This document shows positions 3,662 through 58,082 of a stretch of 64,000 nt of DNA, in pieces (position 1 is the stretch's first letter; the number at the start of each line of letters is the position of its first letter). The stretch is from a virus (taxonomy: Duplodnaviria; Caudoviricetes). A model generated the notes under the pieces. It ran no database searches, was not told the DNA's origin, and saw only the letters and a list, made by a program, of their open reading frames with translations. The translations under genes and the position numbers were made by a program. The DNA is taken from IMG/VR virus record IMGVR_UViG_3300017764_000001; one strand, given 5' to 3'.

Positions 3662-4852
3662 GTGACCGTCACTCTTCGTCCGCATCAACAACGTGGCATC
3701 AATCGTATGGAAGAGTATGCCAAAGGTCAACTGATTTTCCCCACCGGAGCAGGCAAAACTCTCACGGCAATCATGGATGCCAAGAGAGTATTTGAGACTG
3801 CAACATCACACAAAACCATTGTGATTGTTGCTCCTCGTATTCTCCTTGCTGAGCAACTTTGTAGTGAGTTTCTGGAAGTTATTCAACGCAATGATGTGCA
3901 TGTGATGCACGTTCACAGTGGTGAGACTTCTTTCTTCGGCACCACTAAAGTCAAGCAGATTCAGATGCACGACTCCATCTGCAAAACTGCCGGTGAGCAT
4001 CAACTTATCTTCACCACTTACAACTCTCTGGGTCGTATTGTGGATGCAGAAGTTGAGGTAGATACTATCTACTTTGATGAGGCACATAACAGTGTCAAAC
4101 GTAACTTTTTCCCTGCCACCGAGCACTACAGTCAAGAGGCAAATCGTTGCTATTTCTTCACTGCCACTCGTAAGACTTCGGTCACTATTGCCAAACCAGG
4201 CATGAATGATCGTGCCGTCTATGGTGATGTAATCTGCCGAGTTTCTGCACCTGAACTTGTGGAGGGTGGTTATATTCTTCCTCCCAAGGTTAAGGTGATT
4301 GAAATGGATAAGGTTGATCGTAAATCTATCACCCCTCACCTTGAGAGCAACAACATTCTCACCACGATTGATGAGATCAGCATCAAGAAAGTTCTGGTCT
4401 GTTCTAACACTACCAAACAACTGACCACTATCTTCCAGACTGATTTTGCCTATCAGTTGCAGAAACGTGGTTATTCTTATTTGTATATCACTGCCAAGAC
4501 TGGTGCTGTTATTGATGGTAAGAAAGTATCCCGTGAGAAGTTCTTTGAAACTTTGAACACCTGGGGTAAAGATTCCAACAAAAAGTTTGTTGTTCTTCAC
4601 CGTTCGATTCTGTCTGAAGGTATCAATGTCAGTCAACTGGAAGCAGTCATCTTCATGCGTAACATGGATGTGATTGAAATGACTCAAACTGTGGGTCGTG
4701 TGCTTCGTAAAGGTGGCAATGATAAGACCTACGGATTCTGTGTCGTCCCTGTTTATTCTAAGGTTGGTATCTCTACTCAACGTGGATTGCAGACGGTGAT
4801 TGATACCGTCTTTGAGAAGGGTGAGATGCTTGATAGTGTGGTGCGTCGTTGA
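3662..4852 (+). CDS. SF2 (DEAH-box) helicase-like ATPase
   Basis: Walker A PTGAGKT, DEAH, FTAT (motif III), LSEGINV (V), QTVGRVLR (VI). GTG start. Confidence 0.9.
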   Translation: MTVTLRPHQQRGINRMEEYAKGQLIFPTGAGKTLTAIMDAKRVFETATSHKTIVIVAPRILLAEQLCSEFLEVIQRNDVHVMHVHSGETSFFGTTKVKQIQMHDSICKTAGEHQLIFTTYNSLGRIVDAEVEVDTIYFDEAHNSVKRNFFPATEHYSQEANRCYFFTATRKTSVTIAKPGMNDRAVYGDVICRVSAPELVEGGYILPPKVKVIEMDKVDRKSITPHLESNNILTTIDEISIKKVLVCSNTTKQLTTIFQTDFAYQLQKRGYSYLYITAKTGAVIDGKKVSREKFFETLNTWGKDSNKKFVVLHRSILSEGINVSQLEAVIFMRNMDVIEMTQTVGRVLRKGGNDKTYGFCVVPVYSKVGISTQRGLQTVIDTVFEKGEMLDSVVRR

Positions 4853-4854
4853 TG

Positions 4855-4933
4855 CACCAGTCTATGAACTGTCCACCAGTCGTTGCCAGGGCACCAGGAT
4901 GCCCTATAATACAAAGGTAGTCAAGGGAGAGCA
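4855..4933 (+). promoter_or_regulatory. Early-promoter cassette C
   Basis: CACCAGTC-tatg-AACTGTCC (4855-4874). TTGCCA-GGGCACCAGGATGCCC-TATAAT(4905). CAAGGGA RBS. Confidence 0.8.
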
Positions 4934-5101
4934 ATGATCACCAACAAACGGCAAATGCTCAAAGTGATGTCACGATGCACCGATGCAGACACACTCACCC
5001 GTGAACAAAAATTTGAGGTCTTCTGTAGAGTTTGTGACAACATGCTCAAGGAAGGTAGAATCACTAGAGTAAATCACAGACGCTGGACTGAAATCTGGTA
5101 A
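4934..5101 (+). CDS. hypothetical protein (55 aa, MITNKRQMLKVMSRCTDADTLTREQKFEVFCRVCDNMLKEGRIT...)
   Basis: Read by hand. First gene after cassette C. Confidence 0.75.
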   Translation: MITNKRQMLKVMSRCTDADTLTREQKFEVFCRVCDNMLKEGRITRVNHRRWTEIW

Positions 5102-5142
5102 ATCACTAAAGTTCATTCTTCAACCTTTTTTTCTTCATCATC

Positions 5143-5544
5143 ATGGCAACCCGAGCACGAATTGGTCTTCAAGTTGGAAATGCAATCATTTCTGTTTATC
5201 ATCACTGGGATGGTTATCCTCAGTGGTTGGGTCGCATCCTGAGCACACATTACATCACAAAGAGTCAAGTTATTGACCTGATTGACGGTGGTGATATGTC
5301 TTCCTGCTGGACTAATTGTGGTTGGCAGAATGAAACCCGTCCCGAAACTGGTCCAATGTATTATTCTGAGCGTGGAGAAGATTGTCCTCCTCGTTTGGAT
5401 GAATCTATCACTGAGTTTATTAACAACGGTGAAGAGTTTGGTTATATCTTCAAGGATGGTGAATGGTTCTGTTATGATACTAAGACCTGGAGTGATACTT
5501 TCGCACAGGTTATAGATATTCCAGAGGGAGCCCTGGTAGCATGA
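5143..5544 (+). CDS. conserved hypothetical phage protein (MATRARIG...YHHWDGYP family)
   Basis: 133-aa ORF with a conserved-looking YxHWDGYP motif. Confidence 0.8.
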   Translation: MATRARIGLQVGNAIISVYHHWDGYPQWLGRILSTHYITKSQVIDLIDGGDMSSCWTNCGWQNETRPETGPMYYSERGEDCPPRLDESITEFINNGEEFGYIFKDGEWFCYDTKTWSDTFAQVIDIPEGALVA

Positions 5545-5723
5545 TCGATTTAGAAAAACTTTCTCATGAAGAGAAAGAAGCACTGGCAGAAGATTGTGAA
5601 GACTTTCTTCTGCACAGAAACATACCATTAAGGTCACATTCATACGATAACATCATTCTTCATGCAATGAGAGAAGGTTATCGCATCGAAGGATTCGACC
5701 GACCCATCCGTAGGACAGCATAA
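5541..5723 (+). CDS. hypothetical protein
   Basis: 60-aa ORF with an ATGA overlap. Confidence 0.7.
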   Translation: MIDLEKLSHEEKEALAEDCEDFLLHRNIPLRSHSYDNIILHAMREGYRIEGFDRPIRRTA

Positions 5724-5793
5724 CAACTGTCCACAACCTCTTCACAGGGCACCAGGATGCCCTATAATACATTTGTAATCAAGGGACGACCCC
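5713..5793 (+). promoter_or_regulatory. Early-promoter cassette D
   Basis: GGACAGCA-taac-AACTGTCC (5713-5732). TTCACA-GGGCACCAGGATGCCC-TATAAT(5763). CAAGGGA RBS. Confidence 0.8.
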
Positions 5794-6162
5794 ATGACAA
5801 CCTCCTTCGCAGACTACGTTGCTCAGCAGGATGCACGGAACGACATTCAGTTGAACGTTCGCAAGTGGACTTTGATGTTGTGTGATGCTCTGGTTGACAA
5901 TTTCAAGCAGTCTCACCCTAACTCTGATCCTTACACATTCTCCGTTGAGAGTGGTCGTAAGTATCACAAGATTATGATGGAGACTGAATCTCAGTCTAGG
6001 AGTGTTCATGCCTTCGTTGATAAGAAGACTGGAGAAGTTTACAAGCCTGCTTCATTCAAGGCACCCGCAAAGATTGTCCGTTTCAATCTCTGTTTGATTA
6101 AAGACCGTGAGTGGTTGCTGGAGAACTGTGACTGGGCTGGGAGCTACCTTTATGTGCGATAA
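5794..6162 (+). CDS. conserved hypothetical phage protein
   Basis: 122-aa ORF with GRKYHKI...VHAFVDKKTGEVYKPASFKAPAK, a motif familiar from T4-like phage early regions. Confidence 0.8.
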   Translation: MTTSFADYVAQQDARNDIQLNVRKWTLMLCDALVDNFKQSHPNSDPYTFSVESGRKYHKIMMETESQSRSVHAFVDKKTGEVYKPASFKAPAKIVRFNLCLIKDREWLLENCDWAGSYLYVR

Positions 6163-6171
6163 TATGATATA

Positions 6172-6360
6172 ATGAACACATTCAATTCGGAGGTTACAAT
6201 GAACGATGAACGACATTATCACACCGAAAGTGAACGTCGTCAACTTGACGGTGTTGTCACTGATTCTGATAAAAATGGATGGAACGTATCCAAACTGAAT
6301 CGAATGAAGTCCAGAGCAAACAATCTACCTGATGATTCTCTGATTATTGATGACGACTAA
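6172..6360 (+). CDS. hypothetical protein
   Basis: 62-aa ORF. The start may be the second Met, which follows a GGAGG RBS. Confidence 0.6.
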   Translation: MNTFNSEVTMNDERHYHTESERRQLDGVVTDSDKNGWNVSKLNRMKSRANNLPDDSLIIDDD

Positions 6361-45381: not shown

Positions 45382-45768
45382 ATGACTGATAATGATATTA
45401 ATGACATTGTACCAGTTTCTGGAGAAATTGTCCCAGAAAATAAAGATATTCAAAAAGATTATGAATATACAAGAGCAAATTTGTATTCTTTAATTGAAAA
45501 GGGTCAAGAAGCTATTAATGGTATCATGGAACTTGCCGGGGAAGGAGGAAGTCCAAGAGCATATGAAGTTGCCGGTCAACTTATCAAAAGTGTTGCAGAT
45601 ACAACAGATAAACTGGCAGATCTTCAGAAAAAAATAAAAGATCTTGAAGAGGACAGTAAAAAGACCACAAGTAATGTTACCAATAATGCCGTGTTTGTTG
45701 GTTCTACATCTGAACTTCAGAAAATGTTAAAACAAGGTTTTCTAAATAATAATATGGATCCAAAATAA
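45382..45768 (+). CDS. gp16: terminase small subunit gp16
   Basis: DYEYTRANLYSLIEKG, PRAYEVAGQLIK, NNAVFVGSTSELQKML. Confidence 0.93.
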   Translation: MTDNDINDIVPVSGEIVPENKDIQKDYEYTRANLYSLIEKGQEAINGIMELAGEGGSPRAYEVAGQLIKSVADTTDKLADLQKKIKDLEEDSKKTTSNVTNNAVFVGSTSELQKMLKQGFLNNNMDPK

Positions 45769-45771
45769 AAG

Positions 45772-47004
45772 ATGTCGAAGTGTAAGACAGGTTACTATTA
45801 CTGTTATACAGACAAAAAATGTAAACCAATCTCTAAGGGTTTAAAAGTAACTGCCAGATTTTCTGGTGGTGGAAAAGAACCCGAAGAAGTTGGTATTGAT
45901 AAACCGCTAAATGGAAATGGAAATCACTCAAATGGCAATGGAAATGGGAGCGGGATCTCTAATGGTGGCTCTAATGGAGGCGTCAGTGAAGGATCGCTTC
46001 ATAAATGGTTTAAAGGATCCAAATCAAAGGATGGTAAAGGTGGTTGGGTTAATGTCGTCACAGGTGGGACTTGCGCCAGTGATAAACCAGGAGAAGGAAC
46101 ACCAAAGTGTGTTTCTTCGGCAAAACGAGCAAGCATGAGTAAGGCAGAAAGACTTTCTGCTCAGAGAAGAAAGAAAAAAGCAGATCCAGGACAACAACAA
46201 AAATCTGGTGCCGCAAAACCAACATATGTCTCTACAGATTCTAAAAAGAAAATGAAAAAAGAAGAAGTTGAAGTAACAGAAGCAAAGGACAAGAAGGGTA
46301 AAGGTAGTGGTACAAAAGATGCCTGCTATCATAAGGTAAAGTCTAGATATAGTGTTTGGCCCTCTGCATATGCCTCAGGTGCCCTTGTAAAGTGCCGTAA
46401 GGTTGGTGCTGCTAATTGGGGCAATAAGTCTGAGTCTGTGGACTACTCTAACTGGAGAGACGATTTTAAGGCAATAAATTACGAGTTCATTGATCTTATT
46501 AAACCAGAACCTTTAACGGGTGAAAAAATTAATGAAGGGCAGAAATGTTGGAAAGGTTATGAGAAGAAAGGAACCAAAAAAATGTTTGGTAAAACCTACA
46601 ATAACTGTGTAAAGAAAGAAGAAACTGAAATTAAAGAAAAGAAAGATCCTTGCTGGGATACTCATAAACAAGTGGGTATGAAGAAAAAGAATGGTAGAAT
46701 GGTTCCTAACTGTGTTCCTAAAGAAGAATTTTCTGATTGGAGATCTGAAATTGAAGAGGGGGCTGCCTGGACAAAAAAGTCCGGTAAGAACCCTTCAGGT
46801 GGATTAAATGAGAAGGGTCGTAAGTCTTATGAAAGAGAAAATCCTGGTTCAGATTTAAAGGCACCATCTAAGAAAGTTGGTAATAAAAGAAGATCATCAT
46901 TCTGTGCTAGAATGAAAGGAATGAAGAAGAAACTTACTTCTTCCAAAACTGCAAATGATCCAGATAGCAGAATCAATAAGTCATTGAGGGCTTGGAACTG
47001 CTGA
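45772..47004 (+). CDS. modular Lys/Cys-rich late protein (candidate prohead-protease-processed polyprotein)
   Basis: 410 aa. Six basic Cys-containing modules separated by acidic linkers ending in [VI]-x-E. CTAAATA late promoter at 45742. Confidence 0.8.
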   Translation: MSKCKTGYYYCYTDKKCKPISKGLKVTARFSGGGKEPEEVGIDKPLNGNGNHSNGNGNGSGISNGGSNGGVSEGSLHKWFKGSKSKDGKGGWVNVVTGGTCASDKPGEGTPKCVSSAKRASMSKAERLSAQRRKKKADPGQQQKSGAAKPTYVSTDSKKKMKKEEVEVTEAKDKKGKGSGTKDACYHKVKSRYSVWPSAYASGALVKCRKVGAANWGNKSESVDYSNWRDDFKAINYEFIDLIKPEPLTGEKINEGQKCWKGYEKKGTKKMFGKTYNNCVKKEETEIKEKKDPCWDTHKQVGMKKKNGRMVPNCVPKEEFSDWRSEIEEGAAWTKKSGKNPSGGLNEKGRKSYERENPGSDLKAPSKKVGNKRRSSFCARMKGMKKKLTSSKTANDPDSRINKSLRAWNC

Positions 47005-47013
47005 GGTTAATGT

Positions 47014-48657
47014 ATGAGTGAAGTATATCTTGGTAATCCTAATCTAAAAAAAGCAAATACATCAATTGAATTTACAGAAGAGAATGTTATTGAATTTCTC
47101 AAATGTAAAGAAGATCCAGTATATTTTGCCAATAATTATATTAAAATCGTCTCTTTGGATGAAGGACTGACTCAGTTTCATCCATATGATTTTCAAGAAA
47201 AGTTAATTAATAATTTTCATAATAACAGATTTAATATCTGTAAGATGCCACGGCAAACTGGTAAATCCACTACAGTCGTATCTTATCTTTTGCATTATGC
47301 TGTATTCAATGACAGTGTAAACATTGGCATCCTTGCAAACAAAGCGGCAACTGCAAGAGAATTACTACAAAGGCTACAAACTGCCTATGAGAACTTGCCT
47401 AAGTGGATGCAACAGGGTATTCTGTCATGGAACAAAGGTTCAATGGAGTTAGAAAATGGCAGTAAGATATTGGCAGCTTCTACGTCTGCAAGTGCTGTCC
47501 GAGGTATGTCGTTCAACATCCTCTTTCTCGACGAGTTCGCATTCGTCCCGAATCACGTTGCTGACTCGTTCTTTGCATCTGTTTATCCTACTATTACTTC
47601 TGGTAAAAACACCAAAGTAATTATTGTATCTACACCACACGGCATGAATCACTTCTACCGTATGTGGCACGATGCGGAAAGAAGTAAAAATGAATATATT
47701 CCTACGGACGTTCACTGGTCAGAAGTTCCTGGTAGGGATGAAAAATGGAAGGCAACGACAATTGCAAATACCTCCGAACAACAGTTTAAAGTTGAGTTTG
47801 AGTGTGAATTTTTAGGATCCGTTAATACTCTTATTAATCCAGCAAAATTAAAAAACCTTGTATACGAGAATCCCATAAAAAGAAATGCAGGCTTAGATAT
47901 CTATGAAGATCCTCAGGAGGATCGTAATTATTTGATGACGGTTGACGTGGCAAGAGGAATAGGAAATGATTATTCTGCATTTATCGTATTTGATATAACT
48001 GAGTTTCCATATAAGGTTGTAGCAAAATATAGGAATAATGAAATTAAACCAATGCTATTTCCAAGTATCATAAACGATGTAGGAAGAGGTTATAATGGTG
48101 CATGGTTATTAACAGAGGTTAATGATATTGGTGATCAAGTTGCTTCGATTCTTCATTATGATTTAGAATATGATAATATTCTCATGGCATCGATGAGAGG
48201 GCGTGCCGGTCAAGTTGTAGGGACGGGATTTAGTGGTAAAAAATCACAACTTGGTGTCAGAATGACTGCGGCAGTCAAGAAACTTGGATGCTCTAATTTA
48301 AAAACAATGATGGAGGATGATAAGTTACTGACTACAGATTATGAAATTATATCAGAACTTACAACTTTTGCACAAAAGGGAAATTCATTTGAAGCAGAAG
48401 AAGGATGTAATGATGACTTGGCAATGTGCCTTGTCATATTCTCTTGGTTGGTGGCACAGGACTATTTTAAGGAGATGACAGAAAATGATGTTCGTAAAAG
48501 GATATATGAAGAGCAAAGAAACCAAATAGAACAGGACATGGCACCTTTTGGTTTTATAGAAACAGGTTTTGAAAATAATAATTTTGTAGATTCTGATGGA
48601 GATAGATGGTATACTGATGAATATGGTGATAGATCTTATATGTGGGATTATATGTAA
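47014..48657 (+). CDS. gp17: terminase large subunit gp17
   Basis: YLGNPNLKK, MPRQTGKST (Walker A), LFLDEFAFV (Walker B), VDVARG and NDDLAM nuclease motifs. Confidence 0.97.
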   Translation: MSEVYLGNPNLKKANTSIEFTEENVIEFLKCKEDPVYFANNYIKIVSLDEGLTQFHPYDFQEKLINNFHNNRFNICKMPRQTGKSTTVVSYLLHYAVFNDSVNIGILANKAATARELLQRLQTAYENLPKWMQQGILSWNKGSMELENGSKILAASTSASAVRGMSFNILFLDEFAFVPNHVADSFFASVYPTITSGKNTKVIIVSTPHGMNHFYRMWHDAERSKNEYIPTDVHWSEVPGRDEKWKATTIANTSEQQFKVEFECEFLGSVNTLINPAKLKNLVYENPIKRNAGLDIYEDPQEDRNYLMTVDVARGIGNDYSAFIVFDITEFPYKVVAKYRNNEIKPMLFPSIINDVGRGYNGAWLLTEVNDIGDQVASILHYDLEYDNILMASMRGRAGQVVGTGFSGKKSQLGVRMTAAVKKLGCSNLKTMMEDDKLLTTDYEIISELTTFAQKGNSFEAEEGCNDDLAMCLVIFSWLVAQDYFKEMTENDVRKRIYEEQRNQIEQDMAPFGFIETGFENNNFVDSDGDRWYTDEYGDRSYMWDYM

Positions 48658-49223: not shown

Positions 49224-51455
49224 ATGCCATTAAATTTAGCATCTCCTGGAATTCTGATAAGAGAAGTTGACCTCACTCAAGGTAGAGTTGATCCAACTTC
49301 CGATAAGATCGGCGGTATTGTCGGTCCTTTTGCTAAAGGTCCAGTAGGTACAGTAACTAGAATTAATACAGAGAATGATTTGGTTGATACGTTTGGACAA
49401 CCATATGACACAGATAAGCAGTATGAGACCTGGATGGTAGCATCCTCATACTTGGCTTATGGTGGCATTATGAATGTTGTCAGAGCAGATGACACCAATC
49501 TTAAAAATGCAAATGATGCTGGTGCCACACTTAAAATTAAGAGTGTTGAGCATTATGAGGAATTAAATTATCCAACGACACCTAAGAGTGGTGCCACAGT
49601 AATTGCCAAAAACCCCGGTTCTTGGGCAAACGACATTAGAGTTGCCATTATTGATGCTCAGGCAGATCAGAGATTAGGAATTGACACTACTGCCATCAAT
49701 GGTGGAACAGATATTCTTGTCGGAATGGGAATTACTCAGACAGTTCCACCCGGAACAGTAGTTTCTAATACTGGTACTGGTGCAGGAACAACTTCATTAC
49801 TTGATGGACATCTTAAAGGAATTATTACAAAGGTTAATACCGGAACTGTAGATGTAAAAGTTGTTTCTCATGTATCTGCTGCAGGAACTCATACTGCTGT
49901 TGATTATAACAACGTTTATAAATTTGTAATTGGATCGGGATCAACTGCGGTTGCTATTCACACTGCCGGAAATTCAGTTGCCTATGGAACAACCGAAGTA
50001 TCATCTGCTATTGATTGGTTCGGAGAGCAAACACTCGCAGTAAGTTCTGAAACTGTCGGTGGAACTGAAACTGTATCCACAGTTAAATGGAACGAATTGG
50101 CAGATGCTCCAGGAACTTCCGCATATGCAGCTGCAAGAGGAGCAAGAAACGATGAAATTCATGTTGTTGTAATTGATGGTAAGGGGGAAATTACCGGAAA
50201 TGCCGGAACAATTCTTGAGAAACATCTCAGTCTTTCTAAGGCATCTGATGCAGAATTCTCCGTTGGTTCTCCATCTTATTGGAACAAGTATTTGGAAGTT
50301 AATTCTGAATATGTATTTGCAGGAAGTGGATCTAATCAAACTCTGGTAAAAACTGGTTTTGATGGTGTAGGATTTACTACATTTACGGATGGTGGATGGA
50401 ATCAAAAGGCAGAAGATGCCGATGGTCCAAACATTTTTAATGCTGCTGGTCCTCTTGATCTTACTTTGAGTGGTGGTAAGAATTATGATGGTCAAACAGA
50501 TAAATCTGCTGCTGGAGCACTTGACTCTGATCTTGGTGATTTAATCACCGGTTATTCACTCTTTGAAAATGAATCAGAAGTAGATGTTGATTTCCTTCTG
50601 ATGGGTTCTGGAAAATATGGAAAAGATAAGACCAGAGCACTTGCAACGAAATTGATTACCATTGCAGAAGCAAGGAAAGATGCCGTTGCATTTATTTCAC
50701 CACATAGATCTGCAATTTTAACTGATACATCAGATGATACAGCAGTAACTGTAAATTCTGTAGAAACTGCAACCACAAATGTAATTGATTTCTTTGATCC
50801 AATCACATCTTCGTCTTATGCCGTATTTGATAGTGGTTATAAGTACATGTATGATAGATTTAATGATGTGTTTAGATACATTCCTTTGAATGGAGATATT
50901 GCCGGTACTTGTGCTAGAAATGACATCAATAATTTCCCATGGTTCTCACCTGCCGGAACTTCTAGAGGAACTATTCTCAATGCTGTAAAACTGGCATATA
51001 ACCCAGGAAAAACACAAAGAGATAGACTTTATTCTAATGAAATAAATCCAGTCATCTTTTCACCAGGATCTGGAATCATTCTATTTGGTGATAAGACAGG
51101 ACTTTCTAAGGCATCTGCATTTGATCGCATCAATGTTCGTCGTCTCTTTATCTTCCTTGAAGATGCCATTGCTGCTGCAGCAAGAGATCAACTCTTTGAA
51201 TTCAATGATGAAATTACAAGAGCAAACTTTGTAAATATTGTCGAACCTTTCCTTCGTGATGTTCAAGCAAAGAGAGGTATTCAAGATTTCATTGTTATTT
51301 GTGATGAAACAAATAACACTGCGGCAATTATTGACAGTAACGAATTTGTTGCTGATATATACATCAAGCCAGCAAGATCGATTAACTTCATCGGTCTGAA
51401 TTTTATTGCTACCAGAACTGGTGTGGCATTTGAAGAAGTCATCGGTTCCGTTTAA
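49224..51455 (+). CDS. gp18: tail sheath protein gp18
   Basis: LASPGILIREVDLT, GPFAKGP, PWFSPAG, RINVRRLF, KPARSINFI. Confidence 0.97.
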   Translation: MPLNLASPGILIREVDLTQGRVDPTSDKIGGIVGPFAKGPVGTVTRINTENDLVDTFGQPYDTDKQYETWMVASSYLAYGGIMNVVRADDTNLKNANDAGATLKIKSVEHYEELNYPTTPKSGATVIAKNPGSWANDIRVAIIDAQADQRLGIDTTAINGGTDILVGMGITQTVPPGTVVSNTGTGAGTTSLLDGHLKGIITKVNTGTVDVKVVSHVSAAGTHTAVDYNNVYKFVIGSGSTAVAIHTAGNSVAYGTTEVSSAIDWFGEQTLAVSSETVGGTETVSTVKWNELADAPGTSAYAAARGARNDEIHVVVIDGKGEITGNAGTILEKHLSLSKASDAEFSVGSPSYWNKYLEVNSEYVFAGSGSNQTLVKTGFDGVGFTTFTDGGWNQKAEDADGPNIFNAAGPLDLTLSGGKNYDGQTDKSAAGALDSDLGDLITGYSLFENESEVDVDFLLMGSGKYGKDKTRALATKLITIAEARKDAVAFISPHRSAILTDTSDDTAVTVNSVETATTNVIDFFDPITSSSYAVFDSGYKYMYDRFNDVFRYIPLNGDIAGTCARNDINNFPWFSPAGTSRGTILNAVKLAYNPGKTQRDRLYSNEINPVIFSPGSGIILFGDKTGLSKASAFDRINVRRLFIFLEDAIAAAARDQLFEFNDEITRANFVNIVEPFLRDVQAKRGIQDFIVICDETNNTAAIIDSNEFVADIYIKPARSINFIGLNFIATRTGVAFEEVIGSV

Positions 51456-54236: not shown

Positions 54237-54887
54237 ATGAAACTTATCACAGAAGAAATTTCAAATGTAAAAATTATTACCGAGGGCAAAGGTTCTGGTA
54301 AAAAATTATATATTGAAGGAGTATTTCTCCAAGGAAACATCAAAAATCGTAATGGTAGAATGTATCCTATGGAAACTCTTGCCCGTGAGGTAAAGAGATA
54401 TAATGAAACTTTTGTGAATAAAGGTCGTGCTCTTGGAGAACTTGGTCATCCTGACGGACCAACTGTAAATCTTGATAGAGTTTCTCATAAAATTACTTCT
54501 CTTTCAGAAGACGGAAATAATTTTAAAGGAAAAGCACAAATTCTTAATACCCCAATGGGTAAGATTGCATCCTCTCTTCTTGATGAAGGTGTAATGCTTG
54601 GTGTTTCTTCTCGTGGTGTTGGTTCACTTAAAACAACTAGTGAAGGTCATAAAGTTGTAGGTGAAGATTTTATGTTAGCAACTGCTGCTGACATTGTTGC
54701 CGACCCTTCTGCACCTGATGCTTTTGTTTCGGGAATTATGGAAGGAAAAGAGTGGGTATGGGAAGGAGGAATTCTTCGTGAGCAACTCGCAGAAAAGACC
54801 CAGAAGAGAATTAATACTCTTGTTGACCAAAAAAGACTTGAAGAGCATAAGTTGAACTTATTCAATGAATTTTTATCAAATCTTTAA
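54237..54887 (+). CDS. gp21: prohead protease gp21
   Basis: MKLITE, NRNGRMYP, ALGELGHP, GVSSRGVGSL, DIVADPSAPDAFV. Confidence 0.97.
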   Translation: MKLITEEISNVKIITEGKGSGKKLYIEGVFLQGNIKNRNGRMYPMETLAREVKRYNETFVNKGRALGELGHPDGPTVNLDRVSHKITSLSEDGNNFKGKAQILNTPMGKIASSLLDEGVMLGVSSRGVGSLKTTSEGHKVVGEDFMLATAADIVADPSAPDAFVSGIMEGKEWVWEGGILREQLAEKTQKRINTLVDQKRLEEHKLNLFNEFLSNL

Positions 54888-56085: not shown

Positions 56086-57456
56086 ATGCTGCAAATGCCT
56101 TCCCAAGAGGCTCTGCAGGAGAAGTGGGCACCTATCCTCCAACACGAGGGTATGGATGCAATCAAGGATAACCATCGTGCTATGGTTACCGCTCAGCTCC
56201 TGGAGAACCAAGAACAGATGCTCAAGGAAGAAAGAGAATTTCTTTCTGAAGCCCCAACCAATGCTACTGGTGCCAACATCAGTAACTTCGATCCCGTTCT
56301 GATCTCCCTGATCAGACGTTCTATGCCTAACCTGGTCGCATATGACCTGGCTGGTGTTCAACCAATGAACGGTCCTACCGGACTGATCTTTGCAATGCGT
56401 TCTCGTTTCACCTCTCAGAGTGGAACCGAAGCATTCTTCAATGAGCCAGATACCGGATTCTCTGCACAGAGAGAAGGTAATGATGCTACTCAAGGACCTT
56501 ACACCACTGGATCTGACGATGATACCGTTGGTTTCGGTACTATTGGTCAGACTGGTACTAATCCTTCTGCTCTGAACCCAGAGTCTGATGCTAACCAGGG
56601 TGCATATACAGTTGGTCAGGGTATGACCACTGCTAATTCTGAAGGTCTCGGTGAATCTGGTAATGCTTTCAACGAGATGGCATTCTCGATTGAGAAAGTC
56701 ACCGTTACTGCCATGAGCAGAGCACTGAAAGCAGAGTATTCACTGGAACTGGCACAAGACCTCAAGGCTATTCATGGACTGAATGCTGAGGCTGAACTCG
56801 CAAATATTCTCTCTACTGAGATTCTTGCTGAGATCAACCGTGAAGTCATCAGAACCATCTATAAGTCTGCTGAAGTCGGTGCTACTCTGAATACCGCAAC
56901 TTCTGGTACTTTCGACCTCGACGTTGACTCTAACGGACGTTGGAGTGTTGAGAAGTTTAAGGGTCTTATTTTCCAAATGGAAAGAGATGCTAACCAGATT
57001 GCACAGAGAACTCGTAGAGGAAAAGGCAACATGATCCTCTGCTCTGCAGACGTTGCTTCCGCACTCACCATGGCTGGTGTACTTGATTACACCCCTGCTC
57101 TGAATGCTAACCTCAACGTAGATGACACTGGTAACACCTTTGCTGGTGTACTCGGTGGTAAGTTCCGTGTCTACATCGATCCTTATGCTGCTAATAATGC
57201 TGCTAACCAGTATTACGTAGCAGGTTATAAGGGTTCCTCTCCTTATGACGCAGGACTCTTCTATTGTCCTTATGTTCCTCTCCAAATGGTTCGTGCCGTT
57301 GGTGAGAACACCTTCCAACCAAAAATCGGGTTCAAGACTCGTTATGGTATGGTTGCTAACCCATTTGCTGAAGGCACCAATACAACCAACACTGGTCGTA
57401 TTACTGCTAGCAGCAACCGTTACTATCGTCGTGTTAAGGTTGCTAACCTTATGTGA
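56086..57456 (+). CDS. gp23: major capsid protein gp23
   Basis: EKWAPIL, FDPVLISLIRRSMPNL, GVQPMNGPTGLIFAMR, FQPKIGFKTRYG. Probable maturation site LSE|A. Confidence 0.99.
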   Translation: MLQMPSQEALQEKWAPILQHEGMDAIKDNHRAMVTAQLLENQEQMLKEEREFLSEAPTNATGANISNFDPVLISLIRRSMPNLVAYDLAGVQPMNGPTGLIFAMRSRFTSQSGTEAFFNEPDTGFSAQREGNDATQGPYTTGSDDDTVGFGTIGQTGTNPSALNPESDANQGAYTVGQGMTTANSEGLGESGNAFNEMAFSIEKVTVTAMSRALKAEYSLELAQDLKAIHGLNAEAELANILSTEILAEINREVIRTIYKSAEVGATLNTATSGTFDLDVDSNGRWSVEKFKGLIFQMERDANQIAQRTRRGKGNMILCSADVASALTMAGVLDYTPALNANLNVDDTGNTFAGVLGGKFRVYIDPYAANNAANQYYVAGYKGSSPYDAGLFYCPYVPLQMVRAVGENTFQPKIGFKTRYGMVANPFAEGTNTTNTGRITASSNRYYRRVKVANLM

Positions 57457-57533: not shown

Positions 57534-58082
57534 ATGGCAAGTGGATTTCCAAAACAGTTAGCAAATAGAAATTTTCTTGCTCCTGTTGGATTTAAATTTA
57601 CTTTGGCAAAAGAACCCAAAGTTGACTTTTTTTCAAACTCATGTAGAATACCTGAGATTAGTCTCGGAACTGCTATTCAACCAACATATCTGAAAGATAT
57701 TGATGTTCCTGGAGATAAGTTGTCTTATGGTGATTTTTCTTTTAGATTTCTTGTTGATGAAAATCTGGAAAATTACATGAAGATTCATAATTGGTTAACT
57801 GGATTAGGGTATCCGGAAACAACACAACAATATAAAGATTTGACAACTAATGTTGATGGTGTTAGAGATCCTAAAGAAGCATTTAGTGATGGAAATCTCC
57901 ACATCTTGAATAGTAATTATAGAGATATTGCTATTGTAAAATTTAATGATTTGTTCCCAGTATTTCTCACACCTTTAGAGTTTACCGCAACAGAAACTGA
58001 CATAAACTACTTTACAGCAGAGGTCACTTTCAAGTATACTGTGTACAATGTAGTATCTGCTGATGGTAGAACACCCTTATGA
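57534..58082 (+). CDS. gp3: tail tube terminator/completion protein gp3
   Basis: NRNFLAPVGFKF, FRFLVDENLENY, F.YTVY end. Position after gp23. Confidence 0.9.
   Translation: MASGFPKQLANRNFLAPVGFKFTLAKEPKVDFFSNSCRIPEISLGTAIQPTYLKDIDVPGDKLSYGDFSFRFLVDENLENYMKIHNWLTGLGYPETTQQYKDLTTNVDGVRDPKEAFSDGNLHILNSNYRDIAIVKFNDLFPVFLTPLEFTATETDINYFTAEVTFKYTVYNVVSADGRTPL

Follow-up and report, generated by a model that had tools for sequence, protein, structure and literature searches.

The virus record examined here (IMG/VR IMGVR_UViG_3300017764_000001; Duplodnaviria, Caudoviricetes) is a stretch of 64,000 nucleotides, referred to below as the window, and its source is a T4-like cyanomyovirus whose portal gp20, prohead protease gp21, scaffold gp22 and capsid gp23 genes all lie within it. 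Between the gp16 and gp17 terminase genes sits an open reading frame (ORF) at 45772-47004 on the plus strand, which is open throughout, starts with ATG and encodes a protein of 410 amino acids (aa). A first-pass annotation of the window had proposed that this ORF is a cassette-type precursor from which gp21 releases several small, basic, Cys-paired peptides inside the phage head, and we followed this up by comparing the protein with its relatives and with known systems.

The 410-aa protein contains 73 Lys, 17 Arg and 13 Cys and has an isoelectric point (pI) of 9.77. Its Cys residues (4, 11, 17, 101, 113, 185, 208, 259, 279, 294, 314, 378 and 410) form one triple and five pairs, with one set per module, which bears out the about six Lys/Arg-rich modules with paired Cys that had been described at first pass (numbered M1 to M6 here). 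The same is true of the paralogy of M4 and M5, which share 12 of 26 residues (E 1e-07, in a single comparison), and of the hydrophobic-x-Glu triplets at five module junctions and the two SxWR motifs (YSNWRDDF at aa 225-232 and FSDWRSEI at aa 320-327), all present as described; the K-[ES]-E module ends are a looser pattern. There are exactly six [ILV]xE triplets in the protein, where about 2.8 are expected from its composition, and all but one of them coincide exactly with a module start. The exception, LNE347, falls within M6, and the Glu at the equivalent position is missing from the stand-alone versions of this module in four of five small phages discussed below. Cuts at the five junctions would give fragments of about 4-10 kDa that are all basic, with a predicted net charge of +1 to +16 and a pI of 8.0-10.6. 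Long family members usually begin with M1, which is distinct from T4-like targeting leaders.

Table 1. Features of the 410-aa ORF and related genes in the window. Arrows mark predicted cleavage sites; pLDDT, predicted local distance difference test score.
Feature	Residues (aa)	Coordinates	Strand	Basis or remark
gp16 small terminase		45382..45768	+	upstream neighbour; PF11053, phrog_445
CTAAATA heptamer, late-promoter-like		45742..45748	+	24 nucleotides before ATG of 410-aa ORF
410-aa ORF (P0001), candidate head-internal polyprotein	1-410	45772..47004	+	phrog_727 member, DUF6321 at C-terminus
M1, N-terminal Cys-triple unit MSKCKTGYYYCYTDKKCKPI	1-30	45772..45861	+	AlphaFold2: short strands, low confidence
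Gly/Asn-rich disordered linker ending VSE73↓G	31-73	45862..45990	+	pLDDT <50 for 41-72
M2 (GSLHKWF...C101...C113, helical tail) and linker ending VTE170↓A	74-135, 136-170	45991..46281	+	phrog_3477, phrog_12753
M3, AKDKKGKGSG..DAC185YHKVKSRYSVWPSAYASGALVKC208RKVGAANWG	171-220	46282..46431	+	weak sub-threshold DUF5872 match
Acidic linker with YSNWRDDF (46444-46467), ending INE255↓G	221-255	46432..46536	+	targeting-leader-like
M4, predicted beta-hairpin C259-C279, acidic tail ending IKE289↓K	256-289	46537..46638	+	AlphaFold2, paralogy
M5, paralogous predicted beta-hairpin C294-C314 (290-319), and junction FSDWRSEIEE329↓G	290-329	46639..46758	+	AlphaFold2, paralogy
FSDWRSEIEE329↓G, targeting-leader-like junction	320-329	46729-46758	+	motif pattern
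M6, DUF6321, helical, net +16, C378 and C-terminal C410	330-410	46759..47001	+	Pfam E 5e-23
gp17 large terminase		47014..48657	+	downstream neighbour; Terminase_6N/6C
gp21 prohead protease, proposed processing enzyme		54237..54887	+	Peptidase_S77, E 5e-37
LSE55↓A in gp23		56242..56250	+	expected propeptide cleavage site, major capsid protein

M6 corresponds to the Pfam family DUF6321 (PF19846), which is matched over its whole model (1-72 of 72) at aa 338-408 with 82 bits against a gathering cut-off of 28.5, and the full protein matches the phrog_727 profile (E 2e-127) as well as related PHROG families, all of them recorded as of unknown function. Pfam searches with the whole protein and with single modules returned only DUF6321, plus a sub-threshold DUF5872 match for M3 (E 0.04), and a feature search of the ESM Atlas gave only DUF6321, DUF5872, DUF5661 and DUF5824 clusters of viral proteins. 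By tblastn, orthologues were found in P-SSM2 (PSSM2_123) and S-SM1 (SSM1_115), both annotated T4-GC 119. The family is very large: a 90%-identity collection gave at least 8,000 matches and clustering at 50% identity at least 7,380 representatives, the best 150 of which span 205 to 961 aa. Sequenced phage records with a family member number 500-550 and are mostly cyanomyoviruses; the records call the protein hypothetical or DUF6321. T7-like cyanopodoviruses carry single modules too, as do phages that infect Pelagibacter, Methylophilales, Roseobacter, Microcystis and Planktothrix; DUF6321 itself is 75-94% identical among most cyanomyoviruses and 42-47% identical to the pelagiphage and cyanopodovirus proteins.

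Within this family the modules are shuffled, varying in both number and order. PSSM2_123 has the order M2-M4/5-M3-M6 in only 271 aa, the homologue in ACG-2014f reaches 939 aa, and ORF29 of S-SCSM1 carries additional Cys-rich modules. Modules also exist as independent units: M6, M3, M2 and the GLYANIHAKRKR module are found as stand-alone genes in podoviruses and in Roseobacter phage CRP-901. A different combination is seen in gene 18 of Methylophilales phage Melnitz-2 (1487-3439 of stretch L006), a 650-aa protein in which a nucleotidyltransferase-like N-terminal domain (FGRFNPPTTGHEKLM) is fused to an M5-type hairpin (DPCWDTHKQVG...NCVPKEE) and to additional small domains. Virion proteomes of cyanophages repeatedly include cytidylyltransferase- and NMNAT-like proteins (PMC9602691, PMC10665884), and given this recurrence and the Melnitz-2 fusion, the modules may also tag enzymes for packaging.

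To describe the junctions across the family, we scanned 151 diverse representatives for four unrelated module types (M2, M3, M4/5 and M6), projecting module starts from phmmer alignments and counting the motif when it fell within 2 residues of a start. Regardless of what lies upstream, the three residues ahead of each module type are nearly always hydrophobic-x-Glu: this was the case in 90/122 instances of M2, 107/113 of M3, 93/94 of M4 and 103/119 of M6, or 74-99% at module starts compared to 9% at random positions in the same proteins. Position profiles for three module types, each drawn from 76-84 distinct contexts, have Glu at P1 in 65-84% and V, I, L, M or F at P3 in 62-77%, with a variable P2, unrelated residues at P4-P8 and mostly Gly, Ala or Glu at P1'. 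Additional modules inserted in close homologues are bounded in the same way (MSE↓G...VKE↓G). The first-pass annotation had suggested aligning homologues to see if module number and order change while the junction sites stay in place, and this is the picture obtained here, with the junction Glu and the hydrophobic P3 residue conserved throughout the shuffling. What the alignments offer as independent evidence for the motif is its recurrence ahead of four unrelated module types.

The same type of site is present elsewhere in the source phage, as LSE↓A in gp23 and ITE↓G in gp21. Both the gp23 site and the gp21 gene had been pointed out at first pass and were confirmed, the former as FLSE55↓A, which by comparison with T4 gp23 is the expected cleavage site of the capsid propeptide (PMC5694885). 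The N-terminus of gp21 (aa 12-22) reads KIITE16↓GKGSGKK, a hydrophobic-x-Glu triplet followed by GKGSG, and by analogy with LIE-9 of T4 gp21 this ITE16↓G may be an autocleavage site. The GKGSG string also follows junction 2 of the 410-aa protein (VTE↓AKDKKGKGSG).

In T4, proteins are directed into the prohead by the capsid targeting sequence MKTYQEFIAE (PMC8442874), in which residues 4 and 7 serve targeting and residues 8 and 10 serve processing by gp21, which an Asp in place of the cleavage-site Glu blocks (PMC9026906). A search with DUF6321 only retrieved short proteins of 85-142 aa, 120 of which were examined for such leaders, and 42 of the 120 start with the pattern M-[KRI]-x-[FY]-x-[EQ]-[FL]...hydrophobic-x-E. 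Leaders of this kind precede at least 10 different modules, with examples such as MKSFNEFVSE↓GKKRGLWDNIH, MKTFNQFQAE↓CWKTH, MKSFKQYISE↓K, MKTFREFKELAE↓AKRGLYANIH and, in cyanophage S-RIM32, MKNYKEIKQLAE↓E. A near-perfect T4-type targeting sequence, MKTFKQFMSE, starts S-SCSM1 ORF30 (4542-4862 of stretch L001), which lies beside the homologue ORF29 and has a body paralogous to a module within ORF29. The cyanophage leaders match the T4 sequence at exactly positions 4, 7, 8 and 10, and often in length. A literature search returned no paper linking the capsid targeting sequence to cyanophages and none mentioning DUF6321.

Copies of the leader also occur internally, at module junctions (KTFDQFVSE↓S, GITFSQFMSE↓A, GISFQQFQE↓KCW and FSDWRSEIEE↓G), and a leader-like motif lies ahead of about 10% of M4 and M6 instances compared to 1% in the background. 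Judged by their sequences, these internal copies look like the outcome of fusing leader-tagged genes. The 410-aa ORF has one full internal copy, the FSDWRSEIEE329↓G junction, and one partial copy, YSNWRDDF, and both fit the pattern aromatic-x-acidic-aromatic...hydrophobic-x-E. A neighbour of the P-SSM2 homologue, PSSM2_125 (T4-GC121; 4234-6225 of stretch L002; 663 aa), starts with LNNWREEFSINE, ends with HYSWRDELDLQE↓MGAYRGGG and shares the SxWR-acidic-hydrophobic-x-E junction motif; it may be another gp21 substrate.

Modules of the family are also found in small phages, as separate genes for 50-90 aa. The T7-like podoviruses P-SCSP1i, KBS-P-1A, S-CBP4 and HTVC201P each carry DUF6321 as a separate gene (72-86 aa) within their head gene cluster, located between the scaffold and capsid genes in HTVC201P, after the scaffold (head-assembly) gene plus a high-light-inducible gene in KBS-P-1A and S-CBP4, and just after the capsid gene in P-SCSP1i. 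None of these four proteins has an acidic or hydrophobic leader or a hydrophobic-x-Glu cap. Before or after the podoviral DUF6321 gene there is a conserved basic gene of 48-63 aa (GLYANIHAKRKRI.AGSGEKMRKPG...), and in myoviruses this GLYANIHAKRKRI... sequence is a module fused behind an MKxF leader. The DUF6321 and GLYANIHAKRKRI genes thus form a pair of tiny basic genes in the head module of pelagi- and cyanopodoviruses. In pelagiphage Skadi-4, DUF6321 is likewise encoded alone, by a 94-aa gene surrounded by small hypothetical genes, and the stretch examined contains no capsid gene. In CRP-901 (OQ401623.1, about 2470-2990 of stretch L005), a gap between annotated genes holds an ORF of 54 aa that is a stand-alone M3 (MPAKKPKRDACYRKVKARY...), and an overlapping frame encodes a stand-alone M2 (SLRKWF...GWVNCKTGGPC...), both unannotated; the two could have separate starts, or the overlap could come from a frameshift or an error in sequencing. 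Among myoviruses with multi-module proteins, 5/5 have Peptidase_S77, versus 0/5 small phages with single-module genes (the four podoviruses and CRP-901), which is a small sample in which CRP-901 may carry a protease of another type.

AlphaFold2, run on an alignment of 76 sequences, produced a weak model (mean pLDDT 52.6) in which the 410-aa protein would resemble beads on a string, at low overall confidence. M2 (74-135) and M3 (182-214) are modelled as short helical units, M4 (263-281) and M5 (298-316) as beta-hairpins exactly between their Cys pairs, and the DUF6321 part of M6 (347-407) as helical with a pLDDT of 75-81; only the hairpins and DUF6321 reach moderate confidence. All five junction triplets fall within linkers with pLDDT below 50 (stretches 28-35, 41-72, 136-181, 212-255, 284-292 and 318-343). 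A sequence search of all solved structures returned nothing at E up to 1, and a VIA-align comparison against about 48,000 PDB chains matched residues 363-409 to generic helical hairpins and nothing else (best Z 4.5), so that no fold was assigned. DUF6321 ends in C410, and the podoviral proteins likewise retain a Cys as their last residue or beside it. The Cys pairs may form intramodule disulfides, closing after the particle has reached oxidising sea water. We also considered that these pairs bind zinc and set this aside, because two ligands in each module are a better match to a disulfide within the module.

The first-pass annotation had said that absence from virions would speak against its proposal; in published proteomes, homologues of the protein are found in virions of S-SM1, S-SCSM1 and S-CREM2. 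Table S8 of Sullivan et al. 2010 gives T4-GC119 as a 'Structural protein', with 13 peptide counts in S-SM1 virions; the Syn9 genome lacks it. S-SCSM1 ORF29, which has 70% identity over 85% of the 410-aa query, is a 'virion protein' in GenBank. The text of the S-SCSM1 paper reports 45 proteins of the virion, identified with mass spectrometry in CsCl-purified particles, and does not name ORF29; we take the GenBank label to derive from that list, and the supplement to the paper lists no peptide data per protein for ORF29. In S-CREM2, 4 unique peptides at a coverage of 4.1% came from ORF137, which ends in DUF6321. All three proteomes, obtained from gel slices and searched without enzyme specificity for S-SM1 and from Q Exactive runs for S-SCSM1 and S-CREM2, report whole ORFs, without fragment sizes or non-tryptic termini.

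The late-promoter element noted at first pass in front of the ORF, CTAAATA, was confirmed at its position upstream of the ATG. Only five copies are found in the window (40242, 45742, 49182, 57458 and 57515) where about 15 are expected, all on the plus strand, and three of the five lie just ahead of ORF starts: the 410-aa ORF, the ORF at 49224, presumed to be gp18, and the ORF at 57534 after gp23. The rarity, strand bias and late-gene positions of the heptamer fit a late-promoter element that is avoided elsewhere, and we infer that function for the copy at 45742.

Putting these observations together, we suggest that the 410-aa ORF encodes a precursor of head-internal proteins, made up of at least five small basic, Cys-paired mini-domains that are fused through acidic linkers with predicted disorder and that gp21 would cut apart, and from the sequence comparisons we put the probability of this at roughly 0.62. 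The precursor would be made late and taken into the prohead core, where the internal FSDWRSEIEE- and YSNWRDDF-type motifs probably assist incorporation given their resemblance to the T4 capsid targeting sequence. Cleavage by gp21 would then follow the junction Glu residues VSE73, VTE170, INE255, IKE289 and IEE329, and the basic fragments would remain with the packaged DNA. Most likely they would neutralise the charge of the genome or bind it in a generic way, and they might be ejected into the host along with it; DNA binding is inferred here from charge alone. That DUF6321 is so highly conserved speaks for a generic partner, such as packaged DNA, rather than for host-specific targets.

Several points weigh against this interpretation. 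No family member comes with direct evidence of cleavage, the cuts being predicted from sequence patterns, and a location inside the head is suggested only by gene position and analogy. The 410-aa ORF itself has no N-terminal T4-like leader and starts with the Cys-triple module (MSKCKTGYYYC), and a scan of the window gave no other convincing leader-bearing ORF. The junction motif always travels with the module downstream of it, so part of its conservation could reflect shared ancestry or a structural N-cap. The podoviral homologues evidently work without the protease, which means that cleavage is not intrinsic to module function. S-PM2 has the T4-GC119 gene, and no peptides were detected in S-PM2 virions. 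Finally, the AlphaFold2 model is poor and the fold search gave no useful match.

Some of these points would equally suit a multi-domain virion protein that is not cleaved, or only trimmed at its ends, and whose modules act jointly, for instance as a multivalent strap that binds DNA or the capsid, with the motif serving as a structural cap or a recombination-friendly linker. Such a protein would account for the motif moving with its downstream module, for podoviral versions that function without a protease and for shotgun proteomes that return the whole ORF without a size, all while cleavage is so far read from sequence. We nevertheless consider it unlikely, because it requires four unrelated folds (the helical M2, M6 and M3 and the M4/5 beta-hairpin) to need the same three-residue cap, which the podoviral stand-alone DUF6321 proteins do without. 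It also leaves aside that the leaders of relatives match the T4 targeting-and-cleavage sequence residue for residue and that multi-module forms were seen only together with gp21 in the ten phages compared.

The precursor might alternatively be cleaved by gp21 for the sake of assembly, as a prohead-core or scaffold-like factor comparable to T4 gp22, gp67 and gp68, with most fragments leaving the head. The many potential cleavage sites and the acidic linkers do resemble gp22 of the source phage, which has 30 hydrophobic-x-Glu triplets, and T4 core proteins are cut to short fragments that exit the head (PMC5694885). The modules here are strongly basic, however, and the basic internal proteins of T4 stay in the head after removal of their leader (PMC8442874). 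The low peptide coverage in S-CREM2 would agree with loss of fragments from the head, but low coverage is also expected of a Lys-rich sequence after trypsin, and homologues were found in mature CsCl-purified virions of three phages, which leaves this explanation quite improbable. A DNA-packaging accessory or a neck or tail component, unrelated to the head interior and placed among the terminase genes for its function, is more doubtful still: the gene does occupy the gp16-gp17 interval in the window and in S-SM1, and the gp15-gp16 interval in P-SSM2, but in S-SM1 that gp16-gp17 interval also contains the unrelated petE and PTOX, the podoviral module is sited in the scaffold/capsid cluster, and the targeting-like leaders point to the prohead core.

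Returning to the head-internal precursor, the first-pass annotation had combined two ideas that fared differently. The cassette of Cys-paired basic peptides is supported by the comparative sequence evidence from junctions, shuffling, leaders, small-phage genes and virion homologues, whereas nothing here supports a host-takeover or anti-defence role for the released peptides, or their suggested link to the early palindromes, which lay outside this analysis. A host-specific effector role seems less likely, given how strongly the modules are conserved among phages whose marine hosts are unrelated. A more far-reaching version, which we regard as speculative and rather unlikely, is that marine T4-like phages fused leader-tagged internal-protein genes into combinatorial polyproteins and load their heads with disulfide-stapled cationic mini-proteins, some of which would be ejected and act on the host envelope, nucleic acids or defence systems rather than merely neutralising DNA charge. 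The Cys-to-Cys beta-hairpins of M4 and M5 resemble cationic hairpin peptides in outline and would be the candidate ejected effectors.

The closest known system is the set of internal proteins of T4, IPI, IPII, IPIII and Alt (Mullaney and Black 1996; PMC9026906, PMC8442874), which are likewise described as basic and non-enzymatic in a T4-like phage with gp21. The leader of the ORF's relatives, at 9-13 residues, matches MKTYQEFIAE in its aromatic residue at position 4, Phe or Leu at 7, hydrophobic residue at -3 and Glu at -1, and the T4 repertoire is hypervariable and shuffled between phages, as it is here. In T4, however, the internal proteins are separate genes with an N-terminal leader that are cut once, whereas here up to about 10 modules are fused with a proposed cut at every junction, and the 410-aa ORF has only internal leader-like motifs. 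We know of no feature in T4 internal proteins like the Cys pair per module. Pfam, PHROGs and tblastn gave no homology to the mature parts of IPI, IPII or IPIII; because Pfam and PHROGs give only families of unknown function and the tblastn matches are confined to marine and freshwater phages, we regard the 410-aa ORF as a functional analogue of the T4 proteins, not a homologue.

Other systems share parts of the proposed arrangement. T4 gp22, gp67 and gp68 are examples of a single precursor that is cut at several hydrophobic-x-Glu sites in the prohead, but they form a largely acidic scaffold whose fragments mostly leave the head, while the modules here are folded, basic and conserved units. The inner-body and ejection proteins of phiKZ, 201phi2-1 and SPN3US (Thomas et al. 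2010, 2012; PMC5694885) are head-internal and are cut after Glu at short x-x-E sites by a gp21-related protease, some of them at multiple sites, and their propeptides have a targeting role. These giant-phage proteins differ in having Ala, Ser or Gly at P3, in being large with long propeptides and no concatenated mini-domains, and in lacking homology to the 410-aa ORF. In adenovirus, the basic core precursors pVII and pX (mu) are cut by the viral protease into small DNA-condensing peptides in the capsid; this is an analogy only, as neither the virus nor its protease nor the sequences are related to those considered here. As for its own family, the 410-aa ORF is a bona fide member of DUF6321, phrog_727 and T4-GC119, and the records of these families propose no function, no processing and no modular polyprotein nature. 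The polyprotein arrangement and the Cys-paired mini-domains are new, as is recognising that cyanophages have T4-like targeting leaders.

The predicted N-termini of the fragments (GSLHKW, AKDKKG, GQKCW, KKDPCW and GAAWTK) make the proposed processing checkable in existing virion mass-spectrometry data. If it is correct, the family would gain its first functional frame, as the missing 'internal proteins' of T4-like cyanophages, and with it a new organisation of internal proteins in which many fused units are freed by the head protease. A T4-like capsid targeting sequence would then have been identified in cyanophages, and the leader could be used to probe the cargo delivered into Prochlorococcus and Synechococcus and to package foreign proteins. 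Should the effector version turn out to be true, these modules would represent a widespread and so far unrecognised class of injected phage effectors in the ocean.

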